Shown here piece after piece: positions 13,377-38,529 of a DNA stretch of 64,000 bases. Source of the DNA: Eledone cirrhosa (taxonomy: Eukaryota); the NCBI GenBank assembly GCA_964016885.1, contig OZ024763.1:868001-932000 (forward strand), in the 5' to 3' direction. The notes under the pieces were generated by a model. It did not search any database, was not told the DNA's origin, and was given only the letters and a program-made list of their open reading frames with translations. Positions within the stretch are counted from its first letter, which is position 1; each line of letters begins with the position of its first letter. The translations under genes were made by a program, and so were the position numbers.

Positions 13377-13478
13377 CTGAAAAATAAATTATGGTAGAAG
13401 GGCTTTAGGAATTTTATATTACTAAATTTCTTAAATTTCTTGATTATTTAAAAGCCACAGACAGTGTTTTTTAATAGA

Positions 13479-13985: not shown

Positions 13986-14099
13986 GAGGACACAATCCAC
14001 TACTCCTCCCTCTATTACATTATATGGTAGTGATGTTTCATGATAGCTACTCTTCAGCTTCCAGCTCAGAATACAGTGCTCTTTATATATATATACATA

Positions 14100-15186: not shown

Positions 15187-16291
15187 TATATTTACACTCT
15201 GTTTAGCTCTACACCTCGCTACAGGTGTGAATCTAAACATTGTGTGCTCACCTGGGTGAACCTACAGTAATTTCACATTACACTCCCTGGATCACTGATG
15301 AGGGACTCATTTTATAACATGTTATCCATGTGCAACCTGCAGTATTCTTCTCCCCATTTTTTCACATATATTTACCTAAACTGCGATTCTGTTTTTCTCT
15401 CTCTCTCTTACTGCTCCCTCGTTCTCTCTGTTTCTCTTACTTTCTTTCGCCCCCTCTGTCATGTCAGTTAACACTTTCTCTCTACTGACCTCTTCCTCAC
15501 ACTTCCACTCACTCACTCACTGTTTCTCCCCTTCTCACTTCACCCCGTTCGCGACGAAAACAATTTCCTTCTTTCTTACATTGGATTCATCTCGAAAGGT
15601 CTATTTTCTACGCGCTCATATATTCACCCAGCTTATGCTGACAGAATAACTATGTAGCTTGTGCCTCTTCCTATCTACGGTTAGCTTTCCTCTTTGTTGT
15701 TTACTTGTCTCACTCGCTTTACGCGTTCTAATTGTCCTAATAACTTAATTTAGTTATTATTGCACCAACGTGAGGTATATGATTTTTAATGCAATGAAAT
15801 TTCTATGATCGTTGGCAAATCACTGATGAGGGACTCATTTTATAACATGTTATCCATGTGCAACCTGCAGTATTCTTCTCCCCATTTTTTCATATATATA
15901 TATATAGGTACACTAATTTCCATTATATATATATAGGTACACATGTGTGTGTATCTGTGTGTATGTTATGACTCATACACTGTTCACTTTTCTGACATTT
16001 GTACAATTCTATGTAATATACATGCACCTTTGATGATTTGTAGTGCACCTGAGCCCTGTAGTCAATAATTTTCATTAGAGTTATGGGCCTTTGCGTTCTG
16101 AGTTCAAATCCTGTCGAGGTTAACTTTGCCTTTCATCTTTACGGGGTCGATAAAATAAAATACCAGTCACGCACTGGGGTAATTGCTAGCCTTGTGCCAA
16201 AAGTAGAAACAATTATTATAAACAGAAGTAAAAATATAAAAAAAAAAGAAATCAGTGTAAATGAGTAATAAGGTGTATATTTCCTACTTAC

Positions 16292-16392
16292 CTGTGTAGC
16301 TATTGTATAGGTATGAGGAAAGGTGTATGTAATATTGTCATAGCCATATGCTATGGCAACATCCTCTATTATATCACAAGCATGGATGATAT
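16292..16392 (-). CDS. FARSB: FARSB exon 14: [34 protein letters not shown]
   Basis: Conserved B5 Mg-binding motif DIxHxCDxxED; AG/GTAAGT boundaries; 101 nt. Confidence 0.96.
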
Positions 16393-16762
16393 CTGACCAA
16401 TATTAAGGAATAACAGAACTTAGGGAAAACATGGGAATATATCGGCCTTTCTGATTGGTCAGTAGTCTTTGACCAATTAAATTTCATCATTCTCCCCCAC
16501 CCCAACAAAGAAGGAAAAAACACAAGCAAAGGTTGTGGTTCAATTCTCAGACAGGGTGATGTGTTGTGTCCTTGTGCAAGACACTTTATTTCATGTTGAT
16601 CCTTCTGCCAGGAGTTGCAACAGGTAGATAGTATCAGCAATGGAAAGACCAATGGAAACACTGTTTCCTTGGTCAGATTTGACGAGGTCCACCCCACTCG
16701 GCAAGCAAATGAGGGCTGGGATCTTGTCAATTGGTCAGAGCAAGCAAGCGGCTATTATATAT

Positions 16763-17233
16763 ACTAGCAGAAAAACCACCCTTCGGGTGGTTTTCTGCTA
16801 GCGTGTGTAGTGTGAATATTGATGTTATACGCAAGTATATATACATGTAGATATGATACATCAAATAAAATCATAATTGACAATATACACAGAAATTGAA
16901 CGAAGACTGCGTTACACTGTCTTATGTAATCAGTAACGTAATCCATGATACATTAAAAAAAGACGATATTATATATAAACTGCATTAGGAGAAAATTAAT
17001 GATGGAAATATATGAATGTTTATTTAAGCGATCGCTAACTGGAAGTGTTGACATTTGAAAATTTTAAAGAAGTGAATCTTTAAATAAGTAATTAAATAAT
17101 GAACAGCCACAAAATTTAATAGATAAATTATGTAATATTCATTCGTTATTTATTCAAAGTAATCCAACTTATTTTATAAATGGGACAAAAAATTATAAAC
17201 CGTATGCAGTCCTTACTTTATTATAGTTTAGAT
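16763..17233 (+). mobile_element. Second copy of the ACTAGC-start non-autonomous element
   Basis: 5' hairpin ctagcagaaaaaccaccc-ttc-gggtggttttctgctag, 3' end tatagtttagat; aligns with 13479-13985. Confidence 0.55.
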
Positions 17234-17583
17234 ATCATTGTTTAACATCTGCTTTCCTTGCTAGCAAGGGTTGGACAGGTCTATATCTCTTTCTCACTTC
17301 CTTTTTCTCTCTCCTTCTCTGGTAGAAATAGGCTATATTGAAACCTGGAGAAGGGATGGGCTCTGCCAGCTTTAAAAAATGCTCAAGAAACACTATATGA
17401 CACCCCTATGAGTATTCCATTAGATGTCCTGGGTTCATGCATACACTTCTATATATTACAGACTATATATTAGTTTTGTATACTATATACTATAGAAGTT
17501 AAGGGCTGAAGCACTTGCTTGAAGGGGGAATTTCTTCATTGAAGATCTTCTGTCCAGCTATCCTGAGAGTTTCCTACCACTAT

Positions 17584-17929
17584 ATCATCATCATCATCAT
17601 TTCATTTTACGTCCACTTTTTCCCTGCTTGCAAGGGTGGGACGGGAACTGATGCTGGCTTGATTTCTACAGCTGGATGCCCTTCCTAACACCAACCTCAT
17701 TTACAGTGAGTGCTGGGTGCTTTTTTGCCGTGGCACCTCCACGACCACTTTGCAGTGGTATGATAGGGACCCCAGTCCCTATCACCTCATTTCTACAGCT
17801 GAGTAAACTGGAGCAATGTGAAATAAAGTGTCTTGCTCAAGGAAACAACACATCACCCAGTCTGAGAATTGAACTCACAACCTTTCGATTGCAAGGCCAA
17901 TGCTCTAACCACTAAGCCATGTGCCTCCA
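17584..17929 (-). mobile_element. Full-length tRNA/CORE-like SINE with RTE-derived tail
   Basis: Reverse-complement copy of 56156-56480. Confidence 0.8.
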
Positions 17930-18217
17930 TATATATATATATACATATATATACATATATAAATTAGGGGCTAAAACACTCGCTTGAGGGAGGTTTCTTC
18001 TTTGAAGAACCTTCTGCTGTTCAGCTCCCCTGAGAGTGTCTTACCCCCCCTTCTACATTACACAACTTCACAACTGCAGACTCACTCTCTTGAGAATGTC
18101 TTACCCCTCCATTCTACATTACACACCTGCAATCTCGCTCTCCCGAGAGTAACTTGCATTACATTCTACATTACACAACTGCAGCCTCTCTCTCTTCATA
18201 TTTTTCTATAAGGATAC

Positions 18218-18321
18218 CAGTTCTCGTTGGTGGAATATTAACTTCAATTTGGTCATCGTCAATTAAACGACTCTTCAAACACATCTTCGTCAACAGACTG
18301 GCAATACATTCAGGATGTTTA
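18218..18321 (-). CDS. FARSB: FARSB exon 13: KHPECIASLLTKMCLKSRLIDDDQIEVNIPPTRT
   Basis: Acceptor tttcag, donor GTATCC, 104 nt, IPPTR motif. Confidence 0.93.
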
Positions 18322-18840
18322 CTGAAAAATAGAAACCAGTTAACTCTTAATATCCCGCAATGATTCAGCAGAAAATATATTAAAAAATAACAAGGTCTGT
18401 TTATCCAAATGTTTATAGTATCTTTATAAGTGGACAGATCATTGTGAAAATTTGTAATGCTCGAGTAAAGATTATTTTTTAATGTGATGTAGTCATAGTA
18501 TTGTTTTGTAGTTTTCAAGAAAGTCTTACTAATGTGGCTTTGTGTGGTTTGTTAATTCAAATGTTTATAGTATCTTTACTAGTGAACAGATTGTAAAAAT
18601 TCATAGTATTACAGTAAAGACTTTATTATTTAATATGAGGCAGTTGTTATGTTCCAAACAGCAGCTGAATAACAAGAAAGTTAGTTATTTTACTAAATCC
18701 TTCCAAATTCTGGATTATTTTCAGAACTATTTGAAAATCACAGGCCAAGTCTTTCAACAGAAATATGGTAATGAAAAGATTAAAGTGTGTTTACAAACAC
18801 AAACAATACAAAGAATGAAATAAAGTTCACACCAACTTAC

Positions 18841-18902
18841 TTGATTCCAATTTTAGAATTAATTGTTTTTGCACTAATAACCTCTTTTCGATAGGCAAGT
18901 TC
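18841..18902 (-). CDS. FARSB: FARSB exon 12: ELAYRKEVISAKTINSKIGI
   Basis: Acceptor ccag, donor GTAAGT, 62 nt. Confidence 0.93.
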
Positions 18903-18965
18903 CTGGTGAAATATAAGGCAGGTTTATTGGTAAAATATTTTCCTCAAATAGACAATAATAAGCAT

Positions 18966-19160
18966 ATTATTATTACTAATATCATTATTATTATTATTTT
19001 TTATTGCACATCCGAGCACAGCTCTGTGCACCTTGGGTATGTGCAGTGTAGTTTTTGCTGATGTTGTTTCTATTGTATTGATAGTAATTTTCATATGTGT
19101 GCAGTGCCTAGTAGTGCTATCTCTTGTATGTTGTATATATTTGTAAGTCCTGTGGTACTC
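18966..19160 (-). mobile_element. 3' end of an R4/Dong-like non-LTR retrotransposon with (TAA)n tail
   Basis: Minus strand encodes GLTNIYNIQEIALLGTAHI*KLLSIQ*, resembling the C-terminal IQKxxLLGTAHILR motif, followed by a short UTR and TAA repeats. Confidence 0.6.
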
Positions 19161-21080
19161 TATATAATATATATATACAGTACCTAGTAGTGCTATCTTT
19201 TGTATGCTGTATATATTTGTAAGTCTTGTGGTACTCTATATAATATATATATACAGTACCTAGTAGTGCTATCTTTTGTATGCTGTATATATTTGTAAGT
19301 CCTGTGGTACTCTATATAATATATATACAGTACCTAGTAGTGCTATCTTTTGTATACTGTATATATTTGTAAGTCTTGTGGTACTCTATATAATATATAT
19401 ATACAGTACCTAGTAGTGCTATCTTTTGTATGCTGTATATATTTGTAAGTCCTGTGGTACTCTATATAATATATATACAGTACCTAGTAGTGCTATCTTT
19501 TGTATACTGTATATATTTGTAAGTCTTGTGGTACTCTATATAATATATATATACAGTACCTAGTAGTGCTATCTTTTGTATACTGTATATATTTGTAAGT
19601 CCTGTGGTACTCTATATAATATATATATATACAGTACCTAGTAGTGCTATCTTTTGTATACTGTATATATTTGTAAGTCTTGTGGTACTCTATATAATAT
19701 ATATATACAGTACCTAGTAGTGCTATCTTTTGTATGCTGTATATATTTGTAAGTCCTGTGGTACTCTATATAATATATATACAGTACCTAGTAGTGCTAT
19801 CTTTTGTATGCTGTATATATTTGTAAGTCCTGTGGTACTCTATATAATATATATACAGTACCTAGTAGTGCTATCTTTTGTATACTGTATATATTTGTAA
19901 GTCTTGTGGTACTCTATATAATATATATATACAGTACCTAGTAGTGCTATCTTTTGTATACTGTATATATTTGTAAGTCCTGTGGTACTCTATATAATAT
20001 ATATATATATACAGTACCTAGTAGTGCTATCTTTTGTATGCTGTATATATTTGTAAGTCCTGTGGTAGTCTATATAATATATATATACAGTACCTAGTAG
20101 TGCTATCTTTTGTATACTGTATATATTTGTAAGTCCTGTGGTACTCTATATAATATATATATATAGTATCTAGTAATGCTATCTTTTGTATGTTGTATAT
20201 ATTTGTAAGTCCTGTGGTACTCTATATAATATATATATTTAGTACCTAGTAGTGCTATCTTTTGTATGTTGTATATATTTGTAAGTCCTGTGGTACTCTA
20301 TATAATATATATACAGTACCTAGTAGTGCTATCTCTTGTATGTTGTATATATTTGTAAGTCCTGTGGTACTCTATATAATATATATATATACAGTACCTA
20401 GTAATGCTATCTTTTGTATGCTGTATATATTTGTAAGTCCTGTGGTACTCTATATAATATATATACAGTACCTAGTCGTGCTATCTTTTGTATACTGTAT
20501 ATATTTGTAAGTCCTGTGGTAGTCTATATAATATATATACAGTACCTAGTCGTGCTATCTTTTGTATACTGTATATATTTGTAAGTCCTGTGGTAGTCTA
20601 TATAATATATATACAGTACCTAGTCGTGCTATCTTTTGTATACTGTATATATTTGTAAGTCCTGTGGTAGTCTATATAATATATATACAGTACCTAGTAA
20701 TGCTATCTTTTGTATACTGTATATATTTGTAAGTCCTGTGGTAGTCTATATAATATATATACAGTACCTAGTCGTGCTATCTTTTGTATACTGTATATAT
20801 TTTGTAAGTCCTGGGGTAGTCTATATAATATATATACAGTACCTAGTCGTGCTATCTTTTGTATACTGTATATATTTTGTAAGTCCTGGGGTACTCTATA
20901 TAATATATATACAGTACCTAGTAGTGCTATCTTTTGTATACTGTATATATTTGTAAGTCCTGGGGTACTCTATATAATATATATATACAGTACCTAGTAG
21001 TGCTATCTTTTGTATACTGTATATATTTGTAAGTCCTGGGGTACTCTATATAATATACTCTATAATATATATATACAGTA
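19100..21080. repeat. 74-80-bp minisatellite (~26 copies) derived from the R4/Dong-like ORF end
   Basis: Unit cagtacctagtagtgctatcttttgtatgctgtatatatttgtaagtcctgtggtactctatataatatatata. Confidence 0.92.
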
Positions 21081-21329
21081 TCTCACATAATATCAAATCT
21101 ATAAGATTTTGATGTTATTTATTTTGAGAACAATACCTTAACATCATTATGAGAGGCCATACTGGGGCCAAGTAGGGGCCGAGGTATCGGAGTCAGATCA
21201 TCGTGTCATCTTGCATTTGGCCATCGCCACTGTCCACTCTGTTGTCTCTGCAATGAGAGACGTGGGTCATCTGGCCTTCAGCCACCCTCTCGTTCTTCTC
21301 CACTGTCTCGGTGTCCACAGTGATGCTTA

Positions 21330-22110
21330 CACACACTCAACATGCACACACAAACACGCAGACACACACTCAACACACACTCAACACACACACACAAACA
21401 CGCAGACACACACTCAACACACAGACACACACGCAGACACACACTCAACACACACATACAAACACGCAGACACACACTCAACACACAGACACACACTCAA
21501 CACGCACACACAAACACACACTCAACATGCACACACAAACACGCAGACACACACTCAACACGCAGACACACACTCAACACACAGACACACACTCAACACG
21601 CACACACAAACACACACTCAACACACACATACAAACACGCAGACACACACTCAACACGCAGACACACACTCAACACACAGACACACACTCAACACGCACA
21701 CACAAACACGCAGACACACACTCAACACACAGACACACACTCAACACGCACACACAAACACGCAGACACACACTCAACACACAGACACACACTCAATACG
21801 CACACACAAACACGCAGACACACACTCAACACGCAGACACACACTCAACACACAGACACACACTCAACACGCACACACAAACACGCAGACACACACTCAA
21901 CACACAGACACACACTCAACACGCACACACAAACACACAGACACACACTCAACACGCACACACAAACACGCAGACACACACGCACACACAAACACACACT
22001 CAACACGCACACACAAACACGCAGACACACACTCAACACGCACACACAAACACGCAGGCACACACTCAACACACACATACAAACATAGACACACACACCA
22101 CCACACCACC
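21330..22110. repeat. CA-rich compound minisatellite
   Basis: acacactcaacacgcacacacaaacacgcag variants. The H/T/Q-rich ORFs are artefacts. Confidence 0.92.
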
Positions 22111-22126
22111 ACACTGTTATACTCAC

Positions 22127-22178
22127 AGGATATTTCACCACTGTACCATCAGACTGAACAACCTCCACGACTTCAACT
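22127..22178 (-). CDS. FARSB: FARSB exon 11: VEVVEVVQSDGTVVKYP
   Basis: Acceptor tttcag, donor GTGAGT, 52 nt. Confidence 0.9.
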
Positions 22179-22269
22179 CTGAAATGAAATATTGGAAATC
22201 AATCAATACAATCAATAACAACAACAGCAACTTCAACTCTGTAAATATTTCTACATTTTTTTTCATAGC

Positions 22270-22866
22270 ACCCCCCCCTCCTCCTCCTCCTCCTCCCGCG
22301 ACACTACCCCCACCACCACCTCCTCCATATCACCCCACCCCTTCCCCGTATGACACTGCACCCACCACCTCCTCCATACCACCCCACCCCCATCCCTCTC
22401 CCCCCACTACACTACCCCCGCCACCTCCTCCATATCACCCCCACCCCTTTCCCTCCCCCACATGACACTACCCCCGCCACCTCCTCCATATCACCCCGCC
22501 CCTTCCCCCCTATGACACTACCCCCACCACCTCCTCCATATCACCCCGCCCTATGGCACTACCCCCACCACCTCCTCCATATCACACACACCCCCCATGA
22601 CACTACCCCCACCACCTCCTCCATATCACCCCCCACCTCCTCCATATCACCACCCCCCATGACACTACCCCCACCACCTCCTCCATATCACCCCGCCCTA
22701 TGACACTACCCCCACCACCTCCTCCATATCACCCCCCCCATGACACCACCACCACCACCTCCTCCATATCACCCCCCCCCATGACACTACCCCCACCACC
22801 TCCTCCATATCACCCCTCCCCATGACACTACCCCCGCCCACCACCTCCTCCATATCACCACACCCC
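22270..22866. repeat. C-rich ~38-40-bp minisatellite
   Basis: Unit atgacactacccccaccacctcctccatatcaccccc. Confidence 0.88.
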
Positions 22867-23013
22867 TGAGTAGCCTCTCTGCATATAAGTATATTAGTAG
22901 ATGATATACTTATATGCAGAGAGGTTACAAAATAACTTATAAAATAAAGCGTTATGCTCAAGAGGGAAGATATCCTCTAAGGTGACATAAAATAAATGGT
23001 ATTGGTTACTTAC

Positions 23014-23146
23014 TGAAAAGGATTGCTACAGTACTGACTAAACATGGTGACAATAGTATCTAGAACAGCTTTTGCCTTGTTCAAATCTGTCGCTGTACAC
23101 TCAATAAATATATTCTTGGTGTTCAGAGTTATTTTAGAATGATCAC
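23014..23146 (-). CDS. FARSB: FARSB exon 10: [43 protein letters not shown]
   Basis: AG/GTAAGT boundaries, 133 nt. Confidence 0.96.
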
Positions 23147-24273
23147 CTGAAAATAACAGGAAATAATTTGGATTAACTCTTAACATCCTGTAATGACACA
23201 GCAGAAAATATCTAAAATTTCTTACTCTTACTTTTCAATATGATGTCACTGACACTGTCAATAATAATTGTTTCTACTTTAGGCACAAGGTAATTACCCA
23301 GTGCGTTACTGGTACTTTATTTTATCGACCCCGTAAGGATGAAAGGCAAAGTCAACCTCGGCAGGATTTGAACTCAGATCGTAAAGGGACGTAACTATGC
23401 TGGAAAGCATGACGTCCGACTCTCTACCGATACTGCCAATCCACTGCCCTGTCAATCCACTGCCCTGTCAATAATAATGTATCTTAATGAATGTTCTAAG
23501 GACTAGGAATGTAATTACTTGTTTAAACATTGTGTATGCACCGATGATTCCAGACATTTGTCTGGAAGAAACGATCGTCAGCAATTAAATGTATTAAACA
23601 AAAATTTGATTGTTTTACATTTTGTATTTCTGCTCTGTAATACATCTGATATTTTACATTGAGCTATTTTTCTTACTGGTAATCGGGTAGTAAAACATAC
23701 TGCCCTTTTGTATTTATGAAAACAGGTTTATTAATTTAAATATTTATAGTATCTTTACTACTGAATAGATCATTGTGAAAATTAGTAGAATTACAATAAA
23801 GATTTTAATATTTAAGTCTTAACATCCTGTAAGGATTGAGCAGAAAATATCTAAAAACAGTTTTGTTAATTCAAATAATTATAGTATCTTTACAAGTGGT
23901 CATATGGTTGTGAAAATTTATAGTATCAGAATAATAGCGTTAATATTTAATGTTTCATGTGTATGGTTGTTAGTTGAGTGATAATATCCTGTAATCAGCA
24001 GAAATCAAGATAGGACTTGGGCCCCTATCATTAAAACACCAGAGAAACCTCTTATGTGATGCAACATTGAGGCCAGCTAAACCAACATAGGTGTGAGCTG
24101 TAGCAACTTGATAGGACTTTGGGCTCCATCATAAGAAACCTCTTGTAAGACGTAACTTGATAAGAGGCCAGCTAATCCTACATTAGTTGAAGCTGTACCT
24201 TTTTAAAAAACATTTTCACCTGACCAAGGACTACACAACAACAATAACAACATTACAAACAATATATATTTAC

Positions 24274-24382
24274 CATTTATTATTGGTGGAAGAGACAAAA
24301 CAACTTGGTTAACATCATATATAACAGGGTATACAGGTTTGTCTCTAATGATTGGCAGGTAAGCACGAAGATGGCTGTCAGT
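24274..24382 (-). CDS. FARSB: FARSB exon 9: [36 protein letters not shown]
   Basis: VLSxPPIIN motif; AG/GTAAAT boundaries; 109 nt. Confidence 0.96.
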
Positions 24383-25133
24383 CTGGAGAAAGATGGTAAA
24401 TAATATAAACAATAACAAAATGGTAAATATCTCAGGTGGAAATAACGAAACAAATTATCTATATATATATATAAAAGAGATCTGTTTATTGGTTGATAGA
24501 ATCATACAAAAACTACACACACACACATCTAAAGAGTGAGAGACAGAAAGAGAGAGAGATACAATTAAAATATTAAATATTCAGAGAAAGAGAGAGAGAG
24601 AGTAACATCCCACGAAAGTCTCGAAACGGCTTAAACTATAGATCCTTTGATCTATAAGAAGGTTTAACAATATCGCATTAGCTTTTATAAAGTAGTTTTA
24701 CTGTCTTTGATTTTACAGAACAAAGAAAAATTGATACTATTTGAAATTAATCTACCCTCCAGCTTTTATCCATATACTACTTACAGACCGTACTAACAAA
24801 GCTAAACACTTAATAAACAATGTTATGCAGTATTTTGCTGTGTTTCAGATGACGTCCTTTGGAGCTGAACAAGATCATACTGACTATGGTTATTTCACTA
24901 CATTTAAAATCCAAGGCCAATGCTACCATTTAATCAGCAGTTTACTCCCCCAGCCTAATAAGGAAGTTTTATGATTGTTTTGTTTATGTCTCTCTCACAC
25001 ACACACACACACATTATGGTCTCACCTCATACCAGACAATACATCCAATAGTCGTTTTCTCTGTTCTCCCGGGCATAGCCGGGTACCTCAGCTAGTTTTA
25101 AATAAACAAACAAACAAAACTATATCAACATAC

Positions 25134-25284
25134 AGCATAAAACTCCATCAATTCAGTGGCAGTGAAACTCCTGGATTGGTTAAGGGGCTGGAACTGAATC
25201 TCTGAAGGTGGATGAGCCTCATAGCTAAATGGCCCCTCAATTGTATCCAAATCATGCGTTCCTATGGCAACCAACGACCGTTTT
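25134..25284 (-). CDS. FARSB: FARSB exon 8: [23 protein letters not shown]...ELMEFYA
   Basis: AIGTHDLD motif; AG/GTATGT boundaries; 151 nt. Confidence 0.96.
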
Positions 25285-25621
25285 CTGGAAAATAAGAAAA
25301 GAAGAGAAAAATAAGTTTATTGACCCTGAAATTCAACCATCACAAGGTTTGAAGTTGGAGGGACAGAAAGTTGGAACTAATATAGCAAGGTATTTCTAAT
25401 AACTACCAATTTGGTACCTAAATACATGATAACAGACAAATATCGTCATTTCTGTTTAGCGTCAATTCTTCCATGCTTGAATGGGTTAGACGGGTCGTCC
25501 ATACTGGGAGGCAAGTCAGGCCTTGGTTGGCCATGTGTTGCACCTTGCTCCAGTGAGCACTGTAAATTTGGCCAGGTATTTTACAGCTGGATGCCCTTCC
25601 TAACACCAACCACATTTACAG

Positions 25622-25660
<39 letters not shown>

Positions 25661-25671
25661 ATACCATAGAG

Positions 25672-26146
25672 AGGCGGTTTTCCTCTGTACGGTGGCTATG
25701 GTGAAAGAAGTTATATGGTGGAAGAGGTTGAGAGGACTGAGGACAGATGCCTTTCTCTCAGGACAACAATTGATTCCCTTCTTTAAGTATCACTTTAGAA
25801 GGAGAATCAGGGTGGAGAGAGAGGCACTGCACCCCAGTAAATTTACTGAAAGGTGGGTGAATGAAGCGAAAATGCCCCGAGTGATTGGGCCTTCTCTGTT
25901 TATAAGCCTGTAGGTTGAGGAAGAGAGCAAAAGGAAGAAAGGAGCACTTGCACAACACGCTCCTCGAGTTGAGGGTTGTTCTATCGACGGGGTATTAAAC
26001 AACCCATTTGTGGCGCCTCCCCCCTATTGGGGATTTCGATTGTTGAAATTGTTTGTTTTTATATTTTTTACACAACTGTATGTAAAATCCCCAGCATGTC
26101 TTTGTATTGTCCCCTTTCTTGTTGCGCCCTTGTGGCTAATAAAGAA
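25672..26146 (+). mobile_element. 5'-truncated L1/Tx1-like LINE 3' end inserted in (CTAT)n
   Basis: ORF remnant KEVIWWKRLRGL..FFKYHFRRRIRVERE..FTERWV, then a 3' UTR with AATAAA. About 21-bp duplication atctatctatataccatagag on both sides. Confidence 0.6.
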
Positions 26147-26239
26147 ATCTATCTATATACCATAGAGCATAGGAGGTCTTTGTTATATATAGAAATGACT
26201 TCTTCAGGATTAGAATTATTTCATTCATATGAAATCATC

Positions 26240-26279
<40 letters not shown>

Positions 26280-26461
26280 CTGCTCTGTAGAACAACTAAT
26301 GTTATTATATTGAGCTATTTATCTTACTGGTAATAAGGTAGTAATAAATTACTGTCTTTCACTGTTTAGGGTTTAAAATATATATAACTATAAAAAGTTT
26401 TAGTATATACATAACCATAAATAGTATCCTTAATACTATATATATATATATATATATATAT

Positions 26462-27010
26462 ATCATCATCATTTTACGTCCGCTTTTCCCTGCTTGCAAG
26501 GGTGGGACAGGTGCCATTCAGCACAGCATCTCTCCACTTGTCACCGTCCTTCGTCATCTCCTCAGTGAGCTTCAGTGATATGAGGTCAGCTCTCACCACC
26601 TCCGCCCATGTTTTTCGTGATCTTCCTCTACTGCGTCTTCTGTCTACTGGGATTTCTTAGCACTTCTTTACCCAGCGGTCATTCTCCATGCGCATCACAT
26701 GTCCACACCATCTCAACCTTCTCTCCTGCACACTACAACTTATCCCTCTTATACACAGTTTCTCTCTCAACTCGTCTATGCTTGGTCGTTCATGCACATT
26801 GACAATGCACATCCAAAGGAACATACTTGCTTCATTTCTCTCCAGCCGTCGCATATCCTCTGCAGTTGCTGCCCATGTCTCACTACCACCATGCAGCATC
26901 GCACATCTCACACAGGCATCATATAACCAGCCTTTCTTATGCAGGGAGAAACCCGTCTTTGTCAACAAAAGAAGCAGGTCCATAAACTTCTTCCAACCCG
27001 TCCTTATTTT
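26462..27010 (-). mobile_element. 5'-truncated RTE-clade LINE copy
   Basis: LYDACVRCAMLHGGSETWAATAEDMRRLERNE..RRLRWCGHVMRM; homologous to 47030-47583; (ATG)n tail. Confidence 0.88.
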
Positions 27011-27464
27011 AGTGAATGTAACATCCAGTTACTGTAGGTACACTAGAGTGACCACTCGAAGCCTAGTTTCCAGTCGGTATAGAGATGTAGTACTAAGCAG
27101 AGTGTAATAATAATACTAATAATAAAAAGGGTGACGTGTTCATTACGTTTAATGAGGTGTGACTTGCGTTTGATTCCAGAGTCGGACCAGATAGATACAG
27201 ATCGAACTTTGAACTGATCAATCGTGAAACGTGTGTCACACCTCAATAAATATAATTGTTTCTACTTTTGGCACAAGGCCAGCAATTACCCAGTACAATA
27301 CTGGTACTTTATTTTATCGACCCCGTAAGGATGAAAGGCAAAGTTAACCTCGGCGGGATTTGAATTCAGATCGTAAAGGGAAGTAACTATGCTGGAAAGC
27401 ATGTCCGACCCTCTACCGATACTGCCAATGAAGATCTAACACTTTGTACTTTTTATTATTATTA

Positions 27465-27500
<36 letters not shown>

Positions 27501-28055
27501 ATACTTGGGGAGGGTCATATTGTTATACTATTGCTAGAAATAATAACAGAACACACTCACTGTTTGGTTCTAACCGTAACCCAAACAGTGAGTTGACCCT
27601 GCCCAAGTATAACAATATTTGTTTGGACACACGATTTCACATCAAAAACCTTGCAAAACAAATATATATATGTAATAGAATTACAATTTAGCTTCAGGCA
27701 TAGTTGTATACAGATATGTATTGGAATTTCGTATTTTAGAAGAAATACGGTATGTTTAAAATAGACATTTAGAGCCATAGCTATGCCAAAACCTGTCCAG
27801 CAGAAGCAAGGGGGACAACACAAACTCATGCTTACACACGTGCGCAAGTATAGCTCTTATTACAAAACAGTTTTTTCCATTTCAGATAGATGCGCTCCAT
27901 CATCCACTTTTCTAAAAAACAAATCATACACAAAACGCCAGCATCAACAGTTTTGCAAGAGATGTCAACATGAATGGACCTGTTATTTTTATCTAAAGAC
28001 ATTTTTTCCAATTCCATCCCATCCATCCCCTCAATCCATTTTATTTCTCATTCTT

Positions 28056-28091
28056 TCTTCTAATGAAGGACTAGTGTCCGAAACGTTAAGA
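28056..28091 (+). ncRNA. Degenerate hammerhead motif (core mutated)
   Basis: tctt-CTAATGA-a-ggac-tagt-gtcc-GAAAC-GTT-aaga. The stems pair, but the core has CUA in place of CUG. Confidence 0.4.
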
Positions 28092-28202
28092 CCCTCTTGC
28101 TGCTATATCAAGCGCTAACCTAATATATACCTTCCATATACTGTACCGATTGTGTTGTTATTTGTTTACCTTTTACATACATATATATATATATATATAT
28201 AT

Positions 28203-28284
<82 letters not shown>

Positions 28285-28318
28285 TAATTTAAAGAATAAT
28301 AAAAACATACAACTTTAC

Positions 28319-28374
28319 CTGCAAAGATTTTGGTGCAATTTATCCTGCAGCTCAATGAAACTGTTATAACGAGC
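28319..28374 (-). CDS. FARSB: FARSB exon 7: ARYNSFIELQDKLHQNLC
   Basis: YxSFIxLQxKLHQN motif; acceptor cccag, donor GTAAAG; 56 nt. Confidence 0.95.
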
Positions 28375-29826
28375 CTGGGTATACAATGAAAGAAATACTG
28401 TATATATACACTGTTATAACGAGCCTGGGTATACAATGAAAGAAATACTGTATATATACACTGTTATAACGAACCTGGGTATACAATGAAAGAAATACTG
28501 TATATATACACTGTTATAACGAGCCTGGGTATACAATGAAAGAAATACTGTATATATACACTGTTATAATGAGCCTGGGTATATAATAAAAGAAATACTA
28601 TATATACACTGTTATAACGAACCTGGGTATATAAAGAAAGAAATAGTATATATATATACACTGTTATAATGAACCTGGGTATATAATGAAAGAAATAGTA
28701 TATATATACACTGTTATAATGAACCTGGATATAAAATAAAAGAAATAGTATATATATATACACTGTTATAACGAAACTGGGTATATAATGAAAGAAATAG
28801 TATATATACACTGCTATAACAAGCCTGGGTATATAATAAAAGAAATAGTACATATATAAACTGTTATAACGAACCAGGGTATATAATAAAAGAAATAGTA
28901 TATATATATATACACTGTTATAACAAGCCTGGGTATATAAAGAAAGAAACAATATATATACACTGTTATAACAAGCCTGGGTATATAAAGAAAGAAACAA
29001 TATATATACACTGTTATAACAAGCCTGGGTATATAAAGAAAGAAACAATATATATACACTGTTATAACAAGCCTGGGTATATAAAGAAAGAAACAATATA
29101 TATACACTGTTATAACAAGCCTGGGTATATAAAGAAAGAAACAATATATATACACTGTTATAACAAGCCTGGGTATATAAAGAAAGAAACAATATATATA
29201 CACTGTTATAACAAGCCTGGGTATATAAAGAAAGAAACAATATATATACACTGTTATAACAAGCCTGGGTATATAAAGAAAGAAACAATATATATACACT
29301 GTTATAACAAGCCTGGGTATATAAAGAAAGAAACAATATATATACACTGTTATAACAAGCCTGGGTATAAAAGGAAGAAACAATATATATACACTGTTAT
29401 AACAAGCCTGGGTATATAAAGAAAGAAACAATATATATACACTGTTATAACAAGCCTGGGTATATAAAGAAAGAAACAATATATATACACTGTTATAACA
29501 AGCCTGGGTATATAAAGAAAGAAACAATATATATACACTGTTATAACAAGCCTGGGTATATAAAGAAAGAAACAATATATATACACTGTTATAACAAGCC
29601 TGGGTATATAAAGAAAGAAACAATATATATACACTGTTATAACAAGCCTGGGTATATAAAGAAAGAAACAATATATATACACTGTTATAACAAGCCTGGG
29701 TATATAAAGAAAGAAACAATATATATACACAGTTATAACAAGCCTGGGTATATAAAGAAAGAAACAATATATATACACTGTTATAACAAGCCTGGGTATA
29801 AAAGGAAGAAACAATATATATACACT
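28360..29826 (-). repeat. 48-50-bp minisatellite (~30 copies) whose unit contains the 3' splice site and first 15 nt of FARSB exon 7
   Basis: Minus-strand unit GTATATATATTGTTTCTTTCTTTATATACCCAG|GCT(T/C)GTTATAACAGT. Confidence 0.95.
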
Positions 29827-29999
29827 ATATATAACACTGTCCTTGAGAAAGACAAAGGCCAATACAGCTTGACACCAGTGACATCACAACTCATCTATAT
29901 ATATATATATATATCATCTACACTATATATACAGCGTATATATAGTGTATATAACATTGTCTATGAGAAACGCAAAGTCTGGTATAGTCAGAACTCATT

Positions 30000-30745
30000 A
30001 TTTGTAGCTCAAATCCCGCCAAGGTTAACTTTGCCTTTCATCCTTACGGGGTCGATAAAATAAAGTACCAGTAATGCACTGGGTAATTGCTGGCCTTGTG
30101 CCAAACGTAGAAACAATTATTTGTAGCTCAGTGGGCGGTGGATTGGCAGTATCGGTAGAGGGTCGGACGCCATGCTTTGCAGCAAAGACTTATGTCCCTT
30201 TATAGTCTGAGTTCAAATCCCACCGAGGTTAACTTTGCCTTTCATCCTTACGGGGTCGGTAAAATAAAGTACCAGTAATGCACTGGGTAATTGCTGGCCT
30301 TGTTCCAAACGTAGAAACAATTATTTGTAGCTCAGTGGGCGGTGGATTGGCAGTATCGGTAGAGGGTCGGACGCCATGCTTTGCAGCAAAGACTTATGTC
30401 CCTTTATAGTCTGAGTTCAAATCCCACCGAGGTTAACTTTGCCTTTCATCCTTACGGGGTCGGTAAAATAAAGTACCAGTAATGCACTGGGTAATTGCTG
30501 GCCTTGTTCCAAACGTAGAAACAATTATTTGTAGCTCAGTGGGCGGTGGATTGGCAGTATCGGTAGAGGGTCGGACGCCATGCTTTGCAGCAAAGACTTA
30601 TGTCCCTTTATGGTCTGAGTTCAAATTCCGCCGAGGTTGGTTAACTTTGCCTTTCATCCTTACGGGGGTCGGTAAAATAAAGTACCAGTAATGTACTGGG
30701 GTAATTACTGGCCTTGTGCCAAAATTTGAAACAATTATTTGTAGC
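30000..30745 (+). repeat. Head-to-tail array of MetaSINE-like elements, 204-bp period
   Basis: tttgtagctcagtgggcggtggattggcagtatcggtagag recurs at about 30120, 30324 and 30528. Confidence 0.85.
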
Positions 30746-30854
30746 TGAGTGGACTGGAGCAATGTGAAGTAAAGTGTCGTGTTCAAGGAGACAACCTACC
30801 ACAACACTCCTTTACATTAAATAGAAGTACAAAGATTATATAAAACAGTCAAAC

Positions 30855-30914
30855 CTTATCAAAGGTGATGTCCCTTAAGATGGCTGCAACACAATGAGGA
30901 CGAACTTCGGCCGT
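30855..30914 (-). CDS. FARSB: FARSB exon 6: TAEVRPHCVAAILRDITFDK
   Basis: Acceptor tgcag, donor GTTTGA, 60 nt. Confidence 0.92.
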
Positions 30915-31044
30915 CTGCAATAAAATGGTGGGGGAAATTAAAATATGATGAACCGCATATAACCAGTTTTCAACTTAATTTCGGTTTGAAGAGATTTTAT
31001 AATTTAATAAAACTTTCTCATTATTAAGTTGGTGTTTGGAACAG

Positions 31045-31925
31045 AAAATACACCCAGTACACTCTGTAAAGTGGTAGTGTTGGTGTCATGATAAAATACA
31101 CCCAGTACACTCTGTAAAGTGGTAGCGCCAATGCCACAATAAAATACATCCAGTAAACTCTGTAATGACAGTGCCATAATAAAATACATCCAGTACACTC
31201 TGTAAAGTGGTAGTGTTGGTGTCATGATAAAATACATCTAGTGCATTCTGTAAAGTGGTAGTGTTGGTGTCATGATAAAATACACCCAGTACACTTTGTA
31301 TAGTGGTAGTGTTGGTGTCATAATAAAATACACCCAGTACACTCTGTAAAGTGGTAGCGCCAATGCCACAATAAAATACATCCAGTAAACTCTGTATTGT
31401 CAGTGCCATAATAAAATACACCCAGTACACTCTGTAAAGTGGTAGTGTTGGTGTCATGATAAAATACATCTAGTGCATTCTGTAAAGTGGTAGTGTTGGT
31501 GTCATGATAAAATACACCCAGTACACTCTGTAAAGTGCTAGTGTTGGTGTCATGATAAAATACACCCAGTACACTCTGTAAAGTGCTAGTGTTGGTGTCA
31601 TGATAAAATACACCCAGTACACTCTGTAAAGTGCTAGTGTTGGTGTCATGATAAAATACACCCAGTACACTCTGTAAAGTGGTAGCGCCAATGCCACAAT
31701 AAAATACATCCAGTAAACTCTGTATTGTCAGTGCCATAATAAAATACACCCAGTACACTCTGTAAAGTGGTAGTGTTGGTGTCATGATAAAATACATCTA
31801 GTGCATTCTGTAAAGTGGTAGTGTTGGTGTCATGATAAAATACACCCAGTACACTCTGTAAAGTGCTAGTGTTGGTGTCATGATAAAATACACCCAGTAC
31901 ACACAGTAAAGTGCTTGGCCATAGA
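31045..31925. repeat. About 44-bp SINE-body-derived minisatellite
   Basis: Unit aaaatacacccagtacactctgtaaagtggtagtgttggtgtcatgat, continuing into a SINE 3' end at about 32060. Confidence 0.85.
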
Positions 31926-32109
31926 AAGGGCATCCAGCCATAGCAACCAAGCCAGAAACAGTTCTGTATGAGCAAGATGCTCTCACCTGACCCGAATTGC
32001 CTCAAATAGGACAACTTGTCCAACCCATGCTAGCGTGGAAAATGGATGTTAAATGATGGTGGTGAGTGTACAGCGCCCCCAAAAGGGTTAACTTACTAAA
32101 GATACTCAC

Positions 32110-32176
32110 CGTAGGGCTGATATGTAACCTCTGTGGTGTTTCAGGTTCCACTGTTTCGTAAACGGGAATATCTATT
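32110..32176 (-). CDS. FARSB: FARSB exon 5: IDIPVYETVEPETPQRLHISPT
   Basis: AG/GTGAGT boundaries, 67 nt, keeps frame. Confidence 0.88.
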
Positions 32177-32384
32177 CTGAAATGACATAGACACAGTCAG
32201 GTGAGGTCAGGTAAACAACAAGTGAAGAGGACCTTAAATACTGATGTAGTGGGAGAGAGGTGGCCTTGGGCATTTTAAACCATGGACCCTCCTTCTCCAT
32301 GTCAGAACACAGCCAATTAAGGTTAACATCTGATGGTGCTGTACAAGCGCCAGCCTGACACATGGCATGTCCTGATCATTTTAA

Positions 32385-32805
32385 CCCTTTATCATTTACA
32401 TTACTCTATATTTACTATTGTATATTCATGGTAAATGCTTTACCTCACATAATATCTCGCATAACATTTACATTACTCTATATATACTATTGTATTTTCA
32501 CAGTAAACTCTTTACCTCACATAACATTTACATTACTCTATATATACTATTATATTTTCACAGTAAAGGCTTTACCTCACATAATATCTCATAACATTTA
32601 CATTACTCTATATATACTATTATATTTTCACAGTAAAGGGTTTACCTCACTTAATATCTCACATAATATCGAATCTATGAGATTTTGATATTATTTATTT
32701 TGAGAATAATACCTTAAAGTCGTATGAAGGGTAAGTGACAGCTAGTTTGAACAGAAAAAGATGAGAAAATTCTAGCCGGATATGGCCGGTTTAAATGCTA
32801 AAGGG
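32385..32805. mobile_element. piggyBac-type non-autonomous element with internal 60/73-bp tandem repeat
   Basis: TTAA-CCCTTTATCATTTA ... TAAATGCTAAAGGG-TTAA. Confidence 0.8.
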
Positions 32806-33045
32806 TTAAAAATGGGTTATGGAAGGGTTTTTAAATGGGTCATGCAAGGGTTTAAAAATGGGTCGTGGAAGGGTTTAAAAATGGGTCATGGAAGGGTTTA
32901 AAAAGTGGTTCATACAAGAGTTTAAAAAGAGGTCCATACGAGGGTTTAAAAAAGGCATTATGCAAAGGTTAAAAAAGGGACATACAAGGGTTAAAAAGAG
33001 GGTCATAAAAGGGTTAAAACAATATAAGTGAAAGATAAGACTTAC

Positions 33046-33102
33046 TTCTCAAGAAAAACCAGAAGCCCTCGAACAAGTCCTTCGAGACACAGCAGATCAT
33101 AC
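33046..33102 (-). CDS. FARSB: FARSB exon 4: YDLLCLEGLVRGLLVFLE
   Basis: NRYDLLCxEG motif; AG/GTAAGT boundaries; 57 nt. Confidence 0.95.
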
Positions 33103-33774
33103 CTGTTAAATATTGGTGAAATATTGATTGAGAATTTAAACACAAGGCCAGAAAATTTGGAGGAAGAGCAAAGTTAATTAAATCAACCCCAGTACATAAC
33201 AGGTACTTTATTTTATCATCGACCCTGGAAGGGGAAGGATGAAAAGTGAAGTTGACCCCGTTGGGATTTGATTTCAGAATGTAAAGAGTTGGAACAAATA
33301 CCACAATGGCACTTTATCCAACACTCTACTGATTCTGTCAAGATAAATTGCACCAAGTACACTCTGTAAAGTAGTAGCACTGGTGCCAAGATAAGTGAAA
33401 TATTAGTAGGTAATATAACAGGAAGAAAAATTATACAAATTTTTTTAAACACTTTTGCTATGAAACTCTGAAACTGCTGGTTTGACATTACTTTAAAGAA
33501 TTTGTATTATTCCATTATAATCTTATATAGAACCTTTGTTAAGCTATGTTCCAAACAATGGATAAATACAGAGAAAGTTAGTTATATTAGAAAATCCCTT
33601 AAAACTTATGGCTATTTCCAAAATAACTTGAAAACGACAGGGTATTTCATTAAATATGGCAACAAAATGGTTAATGTTTTAAAAATATTGAAGAATTTTT
33701 AAATAAAACCAACCCTTTTCTATGATACAAAACTGTTTATTTCAAAGTATGTATATTTATCTAAAAACTTCTTC

Positions 33775-34660
33775 GTCCACTTATTCCTGAGAGGGTCATG
33801 GGGTCAGAGTCCTCAAACACTCCTTCCAGCGGGTCCTGTCAGAAGCAACCATCTCCAACTGATCTGGTTGTATCCCCCAAGTGTGACCAGCCAGGCTCAT
33901 GGATGTTATCCAACCATCTTGCTCAGGGTCTACCACTGGGTCTCCTGCCAGTTGGTTTTGCCTGTAAAATCTGTCCAGTGATTCTTTCCTGAGACATTCT
34001 AACCACAGTCCATAGTATCAGAGCTGTGATCTCTCAATTAGGAGAAGTAGCAGCTCTCCCTGGAGTGACTCTCTGATCTCTGAGCTACAAAGCTGTCCAG
34101 TGATTCTTTCCTGAGACATTCTAACCACATGGCCATAGTATCAGAGCTGGGATCTCTCAACTGGGAGTAGCAGCTCTCCCTGGAGTAACTCTCTGATCTC
34201 CGAGCTACAAATCTGTCCAGTGATTCTTTCCTGAGACATTCTAACCACATGTCCATAGTATCAGAGCTGTGATCTCTCAATTAGGAGAAGTAGCAGCTCT
34301 CCCTGGAGTAACTCTCTGATCTCTGAGCTACAAACCTGTCCAGTGATTCTTTCCTGAGACATTCTAACCACAGTCCATAGTATCAGAGCTGTGATCTCTC
34401 AACTGGGAGAAGTAGCAGCTCAACCTGGAGTAACTCTCTGATCTCCGAGCTACAAATCTGTCCAGTGATTCTTTCCTGAGACATTCTAACCACATAGCCA
34501 TAGTATCAGAGCTGTGATCTCTCAATTCAGAGAAGTAGCAGCTCAACCTGGAGTGACTCTCTGATCTCTGAGCTACAAACTCTATCAAATAACGTTGTTC
34601 CAAAGACCCTTCAGAGGAACCCCATTTTGACCACGTCTATTCGCAATCGAGGTTCTTACA
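33775..34660 (-). mobile_element. Degenerate LINE 3' fragment with internal ~120-bp tandem amplification
   Basis: Repeated gtccatagtatcagagctgtgatctctcaa..ctttcctgagacattctaaccac. Related pieces at 37940-38130 and 48350-48820. Confidence 0.55.
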
Positions 34661-34821
34661 TAAACTTTTGATTGTAAGAATACATCATCATCATCGTTTA
34701 GCCTAGAAAATGGACATATAACAATGATGATGTATTCTTCCCATGAAAATTTTATGTAATAACCTTTGTTAAGTTACGTTCCAAACAATCAGCTTAAACC
34801 TCTGATTCAACAATAGCTTAC

Positions 34822-34922
34822 CTGTTAGCTGGAATGTCTATTTTATAAACAATCTCTTCAGATAAATCACTACTCTGTTGTGCTTCTCCCTGTTCCTTGG
34901 TCACCATAGCTTTCTCAGATGT
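34822..34922 (-). CDS. FARSB: FARSB exon 3: TSEKAMVTKEQGEAQQSSDLSEEIVYKIDIPAN
   Basis: AG/GTAAGC boundaries, 101 nt. Confidence 0.95.
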
Positions 34923-34957
34923 CTGATAGAAAAAGAAGAAATATATGAAAAATTTAA

Positions 34958-35661
34958 CCCTTTATCATTTACATTACTCTATATATACTATTGTATTTTC
35001 ACAGTAAATTCTTTACCTCACATAACATTTACATTACTCTATATATACTATTGTATTTTCATGGTAAAGGCTTTTCCTCACATAACATTTACATTACTCT
35101 ATATATACTATTGTATTTTCACAGTAAATTCTTTACTTCACATAACATTTACATTACTCTATATATACTATTGTATTTTCACAGTAAATTCTTTACCTCA
35201 CATAACATTTACATTACTCTATATATACTATTGTATTTTCACAGTAAATTCTTTACCTCACATAACATTTACATTACTCTATATATACTATTGTATTTTC
35301 ACAGTAAATTCTTTACCTCACATAACATTTACATTACTCTATATATACTATTGTATTTTCACAGTAAATTCTTTACCTCACATAACATTTACATTACTCT
35401 ATATATACTATTGTATTTTCACAGTAAATTCTTTACCTCACATAACATTTACATTACTCTATATATACTATTGTATTTTCACAGTAAATTCTTTACCTCA
35501 CATAACATTTACATTACTCTATATATACTATTGTATTTTCATGGTAAAGGCTTTTCCTCACATAATATTGAAGCTATGAGATTTTGATGTTATTTATTTT
35601 GAGAACAATACCTTAAGATCAGTATGAGCGGCTAGTTACAGCCGGTTTAAATGATAAAGGG
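34958..35661. mobile_element. piggyBac-type non-autonomous element with about ten 60-bp internal repeats
   Basis: TTAA duplication, perfect 14-bp TIR CCCTTTATCATTTA/TAAATGATAAAGGG. Confidence 0.85.
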
Positions 35662-36183
35662 TTAATGTTTAGTGGCTTCCCTAGTGTTGGTGCCATGAAA
35701 ATACACTAAATACACTCTGTAAAGTGGTTGGTGATAGGAAATACAATCTACACTAGAAACCATGCCAAAAAGAGTTAGGAAGACTCTTCAGTTGTCAACA
35801 GCACAACAACCTCTCTGGGGTTGGTGATTTACACAATAAATACATCCAGTACACCCTGTAAAGTGGTTGGTGATAGGAAAGGCATCCAGCCATAGAAAGC
35901 CTTCCAAAGAGTTGAGAGGACACTTCAGTTGTGTCAATGGCACAAAAACCTCTCTAATGTTGATAATCTACACGATGAATACACCCAGTACACTCTGTAA
36001 AGTATTACAATGGTTTCAAGATAAAATGCTCCCAGTACTCCCTGTAAAGTGGTTAGCATCAGGAAGGAGAGCCAGCTGCAGAAACCATGCCTAATATGGA
36101 ACGTACAACAGACAAGCAACTTCAGTGTATTTCATTAGAAATATTTTAACGAAAGGGTTAATGATATACAAAACATTACTCAC

Positions 36184-36239
36184 CACTTCATCTAATTCAA
36201 GCCCAAAATCAAAACAAAGATCAGCAAATTCTTCTTCAG
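36184..36239 (-). CDS. FARSB: FARSB exon 2: [19 protein letters not shown]
   Basis: AG/GTGAGT boundaries, 56 nt. Confidence 0.96.
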
Positions 36240-36254
36240 CTGAAAGAATTGAAT

Positions 36255-36605
36255 AATAATAATAATAATAATTGTTTCTACTTTAGGCACAAGGCCAGCA
36301 ATTACCCAGTGCATTACTGGTACTTTATTTTATCGACCCCATAAGGATGAAAGGCAGTCAACCTCGGCGGGATTTGAACTCAGATCGTAAAGGGACGTAA
36401 CTATGCTGGAAAGCATGGCGTCCGACCCTCTACCGATACTGCCAATCCACCGTATAATAATAATAATAATAATAATTGTTTCTACTTTAGGCACAAGGCC
36501 AACAATTCTGGGGTAGGGATAGTTGATTAAATCGAACCCAGTGAATTATTGGTACTTTATTTTACCAACCCCGTAAGGATGTAAGACAAAGCTAACCTTG
36601 GTGGA
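36255..36605 (-). mobile_element. Two MetaSINE-like copies in (AAT)n
   Basis: Reverse-complement core ggtactttattttatcgacccc..aaggatgaaaggc. Confidence 0.75.
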
Positions 36606-37136
36606 CGTTAAATGATTATATATATATTTTTTTTTTTTTTTTTTTAAACTTGCATTTTAGACTTAGCTCCGTTTAATTGATTATTTGACTAGTTAATTTC
36701 TACGGACTAAGGAGAAGAAAAATTGGATATATTTTGTCTGACTGTTCTTCAAACTTATAATTTTATATATTCATATATATATATATATGATGGCTGCCCC
36801 GTCGTTATCGAGTATGGCCATTGCACGATATACCATTATTAATAATTATTAATTAATTCTATCGTGCAATGCCTGTGCGTGAAGATATTTTTTAAAGTGA
36901 GGAAAGACTGTGCCACTGAGCCAACCCCACTCTCTGAGGGACAGTAGCTATAACCCAAAAAGAAGTAAAGATCAACATCAGCGGTAACTACTGAGCCGCA
37001 GGTTTTATATCGGAGTTATCCCAGTTTCCTGAGTTGCCTTCTCCTAGAAGAATGCCCTGACAAAGGCTAGGGGTCCTTCACTCCCAGTGGTTTAACACTT
37101 TCGGATGGCCGTTGACTCTTGAGTTCTTCCGCCCTT

Positions 37137-37178
<42 letters not shown>

Positions 37179-37289
37179 AACAAAAGATGGTTAAATATAT
37201 ATTATGTATACTCCAGTCCTACAAACTGTAGAGTGCTTCTTATCCGATATCTGCATTGCTTTATTGTACTACAATAAAACTCACCTCCT

Positions 37290-37291
37290 AC

Positions 37292-37324
<33 letters not shown>

Positions 37325-37601
37325 GACCTGGTATATATACATATACCATATAACATATGTTGATGCCTTAAGGACAGACACTGGTATTTTGGAGACTCAG
37401 GACATAGCAGCGATAATGAGGGACAAAGACCGCTCTAGAGAACTTGTCCATAGATCTCGGGAATTTTACCAGCTCTAGACACAGACCTGCCAACCTCTAA
37501 AAATGCAAACGGGAAGTACCATGTAAAAAAAAGTGCTCCAAAACGGGGAGATTTTACATAATGAAAGCTATACCCATTGACTCTTGAGTTCTTCCGCCCT
37601 T

Positions 37602-37641
<40 letters not shown>

Positions 37642-37890
37642 GACCTGGTATATATACATATACCATATGTTGATGCCTTAAGGACAGACACTGGTATTTT
37701 GGAGACTCAGGACATAGCAGCGATAATGAGGGACAAAGACCGCTCTAGAGAACTTGTCCATAGATCTCGGGAATTTTACCAGCCCTAGACACAGACCTGC
37801 CAACCTCTAAAAACGCAAACGGGAAGTACCATGTAAAAAAAAGTGCTCCAAAACGGGGAGATTTTACATAATGAAAGCTATACCCATTTT
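37290..37890. repeat. About 310-bp tandem duplication
   Basis: cacagacctggtatatatacatatacca...atgaaagctatacccatt occurs at about 37321 and 37638. Confidence 0.85.
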
Positions 37891-38471
37891 CACAAGAAAA
37901 GACATCTCTCACCCACTCCAAAGTGCGTTGGAGTGTGAGATCTCGTTGGACAGAGAGTGTCCTCAAACACTCCTTACAGCAAGTCCTGCCAGAAGCAACT
38001 ATCTCCAACTGATCTGGCTGGATACCCAAGCGTGACCAGCCAAGCTTATGGATGTAATGCACCCATCTTGCTCAGGGTCTACCTCTGGGTCTCCTACCTG
38101 TTGGTTTCGTCCGTAAAATCTGTCCAGCTGATATATACACATATATATATGTGTATATATTGGCTGGACAGATTTTATGTGTGTACGTATGTATATATAT
38201 ACATATATAAAATTAATAAGTATAGACGAGGTGTCAATTTTTCATTATATATACACATACAAACAAACATGTACGTGTATATATATATATATATATATAG
38301 TGTGTGTGTGTAGTGTATATATATATATATACATATGTGTATATACATATTTATACGTGCATTTATCAGTGTATGTATGTATAAATATAAATTAGTACGT
38401 AGAATCGATTAACGTATAATTTCTAACACGAGATCTCTTGTAAATGATAGCCAATATAATATAAGACTTAC

Positions 38472-38529
38472 TGTATGTTTTCCCCAGACATTCGAACAAT
38501 ACAGTTCGATTTACAGTTATTGTCGGCAT
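38472..38529 (-). CDS. FARSB: FARSB exon 1 (start): [19 protein letters not shown]
   Basis: ATG at 38529, donor GTAAGT, 58 nt; conserved MPT start. Confidence 0.95.

Follow-up and report, generated by a model that had tools for sequence, protein, structure and literature searches.

A mirage minisatellite with 29 extra copies of a splice boundary upstream of FARSB exon 7 in the octopod Eledone cirrhosa

We analyzed a window of 64,000 nucleotides from Eledone cirrhosa (contig OZ024763.1, positions 868,001 to 932,000) in which the acceptor of exon 7 of the FARSB gene is preceded by a tandem array. At a probability of about 0.8, we read this array as a neutral mirage minisatellite composed of 29 copies of the intron 6/exon 7 boundary, which the splicing machinery ignores through exon definition while it uses the true acceptor.

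The host gene and the anatomy of the array

A model of 19 exons on the minus strand (coding span 7595..38529) has GT/AG at all 18 introns and yields an open reading frame of 592 amino acids for the phenylalanine-tRNA ligase beta subunit, 84-87% identical to the octopod FARSB proteins tested (4/4). Because this model gives such a product, the exon that bears the array is coding exon 7 of FARSB, as the initial annotation had named it. Exon 7 (28319..28374, minus strand; 56 nt, ARYNSFIELQDKLHQNLC(R)) has its acceptor at 28374 and the donor CAG|GTAAAG. It is separated by the 2,480 nt of intron 6 (28375-30854, minus strand) from exon 6 (30855..30914, minus strand), which ends in the donor AAG|GTTTGA, and it is followed by exon 8 (25134..25284, minus strand), whose best homologues are the FARSB proteins of Octopus sinensis (90%) and Argonauta hians (85%). 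Elsewhere in the gene, exon 18 (8429-8599, minus strand) encodes four residues more than its O. sinensis counterpart, inserted in the loop that follows DVKY. A second short copy of the exon 11 acceptor with the first 9 exon bases (CAG AGTTGAAGT) occurs ∼60 nt upstream of the true site, the pair lying at 22230-22245 and 22170-22185 (minus strand); this copy is shorter than the 24-mer comparison of splice sites described below could register. Self-BLAST also detected an inverted repeat of ∼250 bp (6905-7158, arms 93% identical) downstream of the FARSB stop codon.

TRF reported one tandem array at 28360-29836, with a period of 48, 30.2 copies, and 93% matches. Parsed on the minus strand, this minisatellite (28360..29836) resolves into 30 units, each an acceptor plus an exon head, namely 29 extra copies and, as the last unit, the true acceptor at 28374 with the exon start. 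A unit joins the last 32-39 nt of intron 6 to the first 15 nt of exon 7. The array is not a product of chance, since a 24-mer across the exon 7 acceptor has 29 near-copies and 33 of the 35 other FARSB splice sites have none; of the two remaining sites, one has a single distant match with 5 mismatches, and donor 17 has 21. Our analysis thus upholds the claim that ∼30 near-identical tandem acceptors precede exon 7. The accompanying description of each unit needs correction on several points. The AG is kept in 28 of the 29 extra copies (unit 20 reads CTG), and GTATAT follows the head directly in 28 of 29. The units are spaced by 47-54 bp rather than 48-50 bp. ARYNS or ACYNS is encoded by 20 of the 29 heads, and the remaining nine give ACYNC, VRYNS (three copies), ACYSS, FRYNS, VHYNS (two copies), and AHYNS.

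History of the array

The units fall into three blocks on the minus strand. Comparison of the units delimits a proximal block of 50-bp units (units 27-30, 28360..28559), in which units 27 and 29 match the true acceptor unit (unit 30) at every base and unit 28 at all but one. A diverged middle block (units 20-26, 28560..28913) contains units of 48-54 bp, including unit 20 without its AG, and a distal block (units 1-19, 28914..29823) contains units of 47-48 bp. The mean number of differences per pair is 0.5 in the proximal block, 5.2 in the middle block, and 0.5 in the distal block. Divergence from the exon declines towards the exon (Spearman -0.48, n=29, over copies that are not independent), which agrees with the directional growth proposed in the initial annotation. 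That proposal does not account for two homogeneous blocks flanking a diverged middle, and the pattern points to two recent local expansions (units 1-19 and units 27-30) around an older core rather than to steady one-way growth. In this picture, turnover extends to the working acceptor. A variant tail is common to units 1 and 10, which is consistent with a block duplication of ∼9 units. The CG of the head reads TG in 20 copies and CA in 3, probably the two outcomes of CpG decay.

The intron-side end of the array (29817..29857, minus strand, placed by alignment) resembles the exon head (GTTATA..AGT), and an older 41-bp copy of this end is found at 29937-29977 (34/41 identical). Because it resembles the exon head and belongs to an older local duplicate, this end is a plausible microhomology for the first duplication. 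We infer that the first step was one duplication of ∼50 bp between the intronic stretch and its look-alike where the exon begins, which by construction would leave an intact exon at the 3' end. Growth may then have proceeded by (TA)n slippage and unequal exchange before the two recent expansions. Birth of intron 6 itself by boundary duplication was judged unlikely by eye, as the exon 6 donor and tail are unlike the unit.

Use of the last acceptor

Three sequencing runs of one study (X1, X2, and X3), none recorded as RNA, contain the last FARSB exon and were available as assembled contigs, and these were compared with exon 7 plus a single copy, the nearest one (28286-28445). One X3 contig of 2,078 nt (record 16) matches all of exon 7 without a mismatch and runs on, at its two loose ends, into the 3' end of exon 6 and the 5' start of exon 8. 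This spliced contig, the only one with the junctions and from a run of unrecorded kind, shows the canonical exon 6-7-8 junctions and joins exon 6 to the last, true acceptor of exon 7, as had been proposed. No X3 contig lies on the nearest copy, and no joint at +15 or +50 is listed among them; contigs drop rare forms and are hence uninformative on absence.

We then looked at what could distinguish the true acceptor from its copies. Over a length of 50 nt, no difference separates units 27, 29, and 30, and because they share the same upstream sequence, the choice between them must come from downstream. The features of the upstream sequence do not single out the true site. Its pyrimidine content is 0.68, compared with 0.68-0.82 for the copies (0.77-0.82 in the distal units), and its branch-point candidates at -13, -40, and -43 are not convincing, with a further AG at -25. 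RNA structure was rejected as the selector, as the predicted accessibility is no higher at the true acceptor (0.61) than at the copies (0.58-0.84). The proximal 341 nt fold at z=-2.0, and arrays compared with shuffled-unit arrays gave folding z values between -1.2 and -2.0; one of these arrays has no splice site.

What sets the last copy apart is that it alone leads on into the other 41 nt of exon 7 and to a good donor 56 nt away. The extra copies have no usable donor after them, and the spliceosome would likely ignore them via exon definition. Exon length alone is insufficient for this choice, because splicing to any of the four nearest copies (+50 to +200) would produce an exon of 106-256 nt, itself an ordinary size; a preference for the nearest site or enhancers within exon 7 would also be needed. 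Early globin duplication experiments conflicted on which copy was used, as summarised in PMC1557585.

Joining exon 6 to any of the extra copies would introduce a premature stop (29/29), by codon 459 at the latest, even for the four in-frame copies at +150, +300, +402, and +450. Translation of the junctions also confirmed that the nearest copy (+50) shifts the frame. Each stop is positioned well 5' of the last junction, and transcripts with such stops are targets of nonsense-mediated decay (NMD). A leak to a copy would thus end in a premature stop and in removal of the transcript by NMD, which may serve as a backstop. We conclude that the exon 7 array is most likely a neutral by-product, presumably kept harmless by exon definition with NMD behind it.

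Alternative readings of the copies

Two alternatives, which we consider extremely unlikely, concern what the units are. One is that GTATAT, unedited, acts as a weak donor, so that units would be included as in-frame 15-nt microexons, as the initial annotation had speculated. Spliced microexons range from 3 to 27 nt, and the candidate fits on the acceptor side, with 15 nt at a phase-0 junction that preserve the frame and an AG upstream in 28 of 29 copies. The donor side argues against it, since GTATAT does not provide the usable 5' splice site that a microexon takes. AGT|GTATAT has 4/9 matches to the U1-pairing consensus, compared with 5-9 for real donors in the window (27 donors from three genes); it lacks both the G at -1 and the G at +5, as none of the 27 real donors does; and by a window-trained matrix it scores as background, at the 47th percentile of 2,090 intronic GTs. 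Shifting the donor two bases upstream would give an out-of-frame exon of 13 nt; that site has 3/9 matches but reaches the 88th percentile by the matrix. The window does hold a 12-nt coding microexon, in INTS11 (52993-53004, plus strand), and there an AG precedes and the donor AAG|GTGAGT follows a sequence predicted to supply GAGQ between the neighbouring exons. At the protein level, an indel at residues 125-150 was found in 0 of 68 full-length FARSB homologues; this stretch is also conserved in the solved human protein, and ARYNS is present once in each of the octopod proteins (5/5). The TGC motif is absent from the unit tails. These results speak against the microexon claim. The other alternative is that the array is an assembly artefact, missing or much shorter in the genome. 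Its 18 near-identical 48-bp units can be mis-sized, and the support comes from contigs of which none spans the array. Against an artefact, the array contains 13 distinct unit types in an ordered pattern, and short contigs of X1 and X2 carry proximal-type units, distal-type units, and a head-to-tail junction. The repeat is present in the X1/X2 data, in which both runs represent one sample, possibly the assembly's own, and the short contigs give no copy number; summed contig depths over the units far exceed the unique flank, and such depths give no copy number either.

Other alternatives give the copies a role in expression. A sizeable share of transcripts could use the nearest copies and be degraded by NMD, with array length or tissue setting the dose of FARSB. 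The premature stop from every copy (29/29) would suit such a role, as would the identity of units 27 and 29 to the true acceptor unit and the richer pyrimidine tracts of the distal units, which have no internal AG between head and acceptor. We nevertheless regard it as unlikely, because the young array is turning over and shows no conservation, the spliced contig seen in X3 is canonical, and the amphioxus mirages are without aberrant mRNA in the reported cases (PMC3087553, PMC3902484). Even less probable, in our estimate, is that some units serve as recursive splice points or that ADAR edits the A at +5 of GTATAT and thereby creates a usable 15-nt microexon. An AG stands directly before GT in 4 of the 28 AG-bearing copies (units 23, 24, 25, and 28; 28469..28726, minus strand, with heads at 28724, 28674, 28622, and 28474), where splicing to exon 6 would regenerate a donor. 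AAG|GTTCGT has 6/9 consensus matches and the native exon 6 donor 5/9, but the window-trained matrix reverses this order (-1.9 and -5.2 compared with 0.1 for the native donor); only these few copies have AG|GT, and intron 6 is short (2,480 nt), recursive splice sites being usual in introns of tens of kilobases. Coleoids have high RNA editing. The distal units are predicted to pair mutually over 20 nt, G-U pairs included, the +5 A is predicted to be paired in 24 of 29 units (unpaired probability ≤0.17), and the edited donor GTATGT would score 5/9, like the FARSB exon 8 donor. This folding is only mildly above that of shuffled-unit arrays (8/200 as stable) and no better than that of an intron 11 array, which has no splice site (9/200), and in units 26-29 the prediction leaves the +5 A largely unpaired. 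A combined scheme, in which distal pairing and an edited +5 A would yield microexons, units 25 and 28 would allow resplicing, and array length together with editing would tune phenylalanyl-tRNA synthetase output, appears to us just as improbable.

Sister arrays and repeat context

Tandem repeats make up 30% of the window, and within the FARSB span their share is 44%. Two further arrays straddle splice sites. The array at FARSB exon 17 (8769..10615, minus strand) has 84-85 bp units with the last 33 nt of the exon and a strong GTGAGT donor, in 21 extra copies, and the four alternative donors tested (4/4) all lead to a stop. Of the words sampled from 7340-7760, a fraction of 0.93 is present in X3, which would agree, only indirectly, with a contig that lacks an 84-nt insert there. 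Most units of this array contain an AG, 27 nt, and then the donor, which together delimit an in-frame DIVLQDSNK cassette; by its sequence, the cassette would be a better microexon candidate than the exon 7 array, though its acceptor follows a run of G. The INTS11 array (58038..58572, plus strand) repeats the exon end GTTCAC with the GTATGT donor at 58043/58044 in 11 extra copies. Eleven of its 12 units have CAC|GTATGT, and the spacings (36-69 nt) are all multiples of 3. Because of these spacings and an open frame, a transcript spliced from one of the later donors would gain valine-rich residues and avoid NMD.

Arrays that straddle a boundary are thus found at 3 of the 53 splice sites in the window. 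For placement, we took 25 arrays, less 5 of low complexity and 4 outside genes, and divided them into locus-born and dispersed after seeing the data. Under random placement in repeat-collapsed genes, 3 of the 7 locus-born arrays are at a boundary where 0.45 is expected (P=0.007), and without the exon 7 array, which had been selected, the figures are 2 of 6 and 0.39 (P=0.05). With dispersed families included, 3 of 16 arrays are at a boundary where 1.38 is expected (P=0.15). As the classes were set after seeing the data, the enrichment at splice boundaries is at most a hint.

Repeats away from splice sites are also common. Other FARSB intron arrays (19102-21057, 10773-11176, and 32801-33019) have units without a match elsewhere in the window. 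One satellite family of 60-72 bp occupies four intronic sites in two genes (32393-32666, 34966-35569, 54003-54543, and 61888-62275), and families of 48 bp, 139 bp, and 204 bp also recur. A gene of the GLTP family (Pfam GLTP; 43400-49780, minus strand) with two coding exons lies head to head with INTS11, and its intron contains LINE reverse-transcriptase remnants at 44788-47425.

Relation to known mirage minisatellites

The exon 7 array is a mirage minisatellite, a class already named in amphioxus and mirrored by human F7. Amphioxus mirages are described in Adh3, troponin C, the globins BflGb6 and BflGb9, and PGBD5, and for BflGb6, RT-PCR suggested that regular splicing was unaffected (PMC3087553, PMC3902484). 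Length instability between haplotypes or in the soma is one of five mirage features, and the octopod array displays the other four: a unit that spans the boundary (32-39 nt of intron tail plus 15 nt of exon 7); a splice signal kept in many but not all units (AG in 28/29); regular mRNA, as judged from one canonical exon 6-7-8 contig, which is silent on rare forms; and concerted evolution (0.5 differences per pair in units 1-19 and in units 27-30). As reported for amphioxus (PMC3087553), tandem copies of an intron-exon boundary sit inside the intron, with the same acceptor-side layout in BflGb6; many but not all units keep their signals, and the unit length is within the reported 10-160 bp; evolution is concerted in blocks, the mRNA is normal, and both 5' and 3' boundaries are affected. 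The cases differ in that the host is an octopod mollusc and not a cephalochordate, and in that 29 copies are present compared with 3-6 in BflGb6 (PMC3087553). Moreover, the end units of BflGb6 are reported to escape homogenisation (PMC3087553), whereas the exon-side end unit of the octopod array is identical to two of its neighbours.

The 37-bp VNTR in intron 7 of human F7, a donor-side case that has been put to the test, also presents identical tandem splice sites of which only the exon-proximal one is used (PMC1557585), and it corresponds directly to the two sister arrays on the donor side. It differs from the exon 7 array in being on the donor side and in having 5-9 copies (PMC1557585). The 5'-to-3' scan proposed for F7 (PMC1557585) would pick the first site, whereas the octopod array requires the last of 30 acceptors. 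Growth of minisatellites across splice boundaries is likewise shared with internal tandem repeats of human paralogues, which sit at exon-intron boundaries and have units of tens of bases (PMC2812944), and with the Rogers duplication model of intron gain (cited in PMC3087553). Such repeats can create new introns or alternative transcripts (PMC2812944, PMC3087553), whereas the octopod array lengthens the 3' end of an intron with no new intron or isoform seen.

Implications

The exon 7 array extends mirage minisatellites to cephalopods, for which we found no mirage case in the open-access literature searched. With 3 arrays per 53 splice sites, octopod gene models and short-read junction mapping may often meet decoy sites. 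Should the decoys be used, or should recursive rescue or inclusion through editing take place, a variable repeat would set the dose of an essential enzyme. As the array stands, with three acceptors identical in their upstream sequence, 26 near-identical ones, and the last one used, it offers a natural test of 3' splice-site choice.
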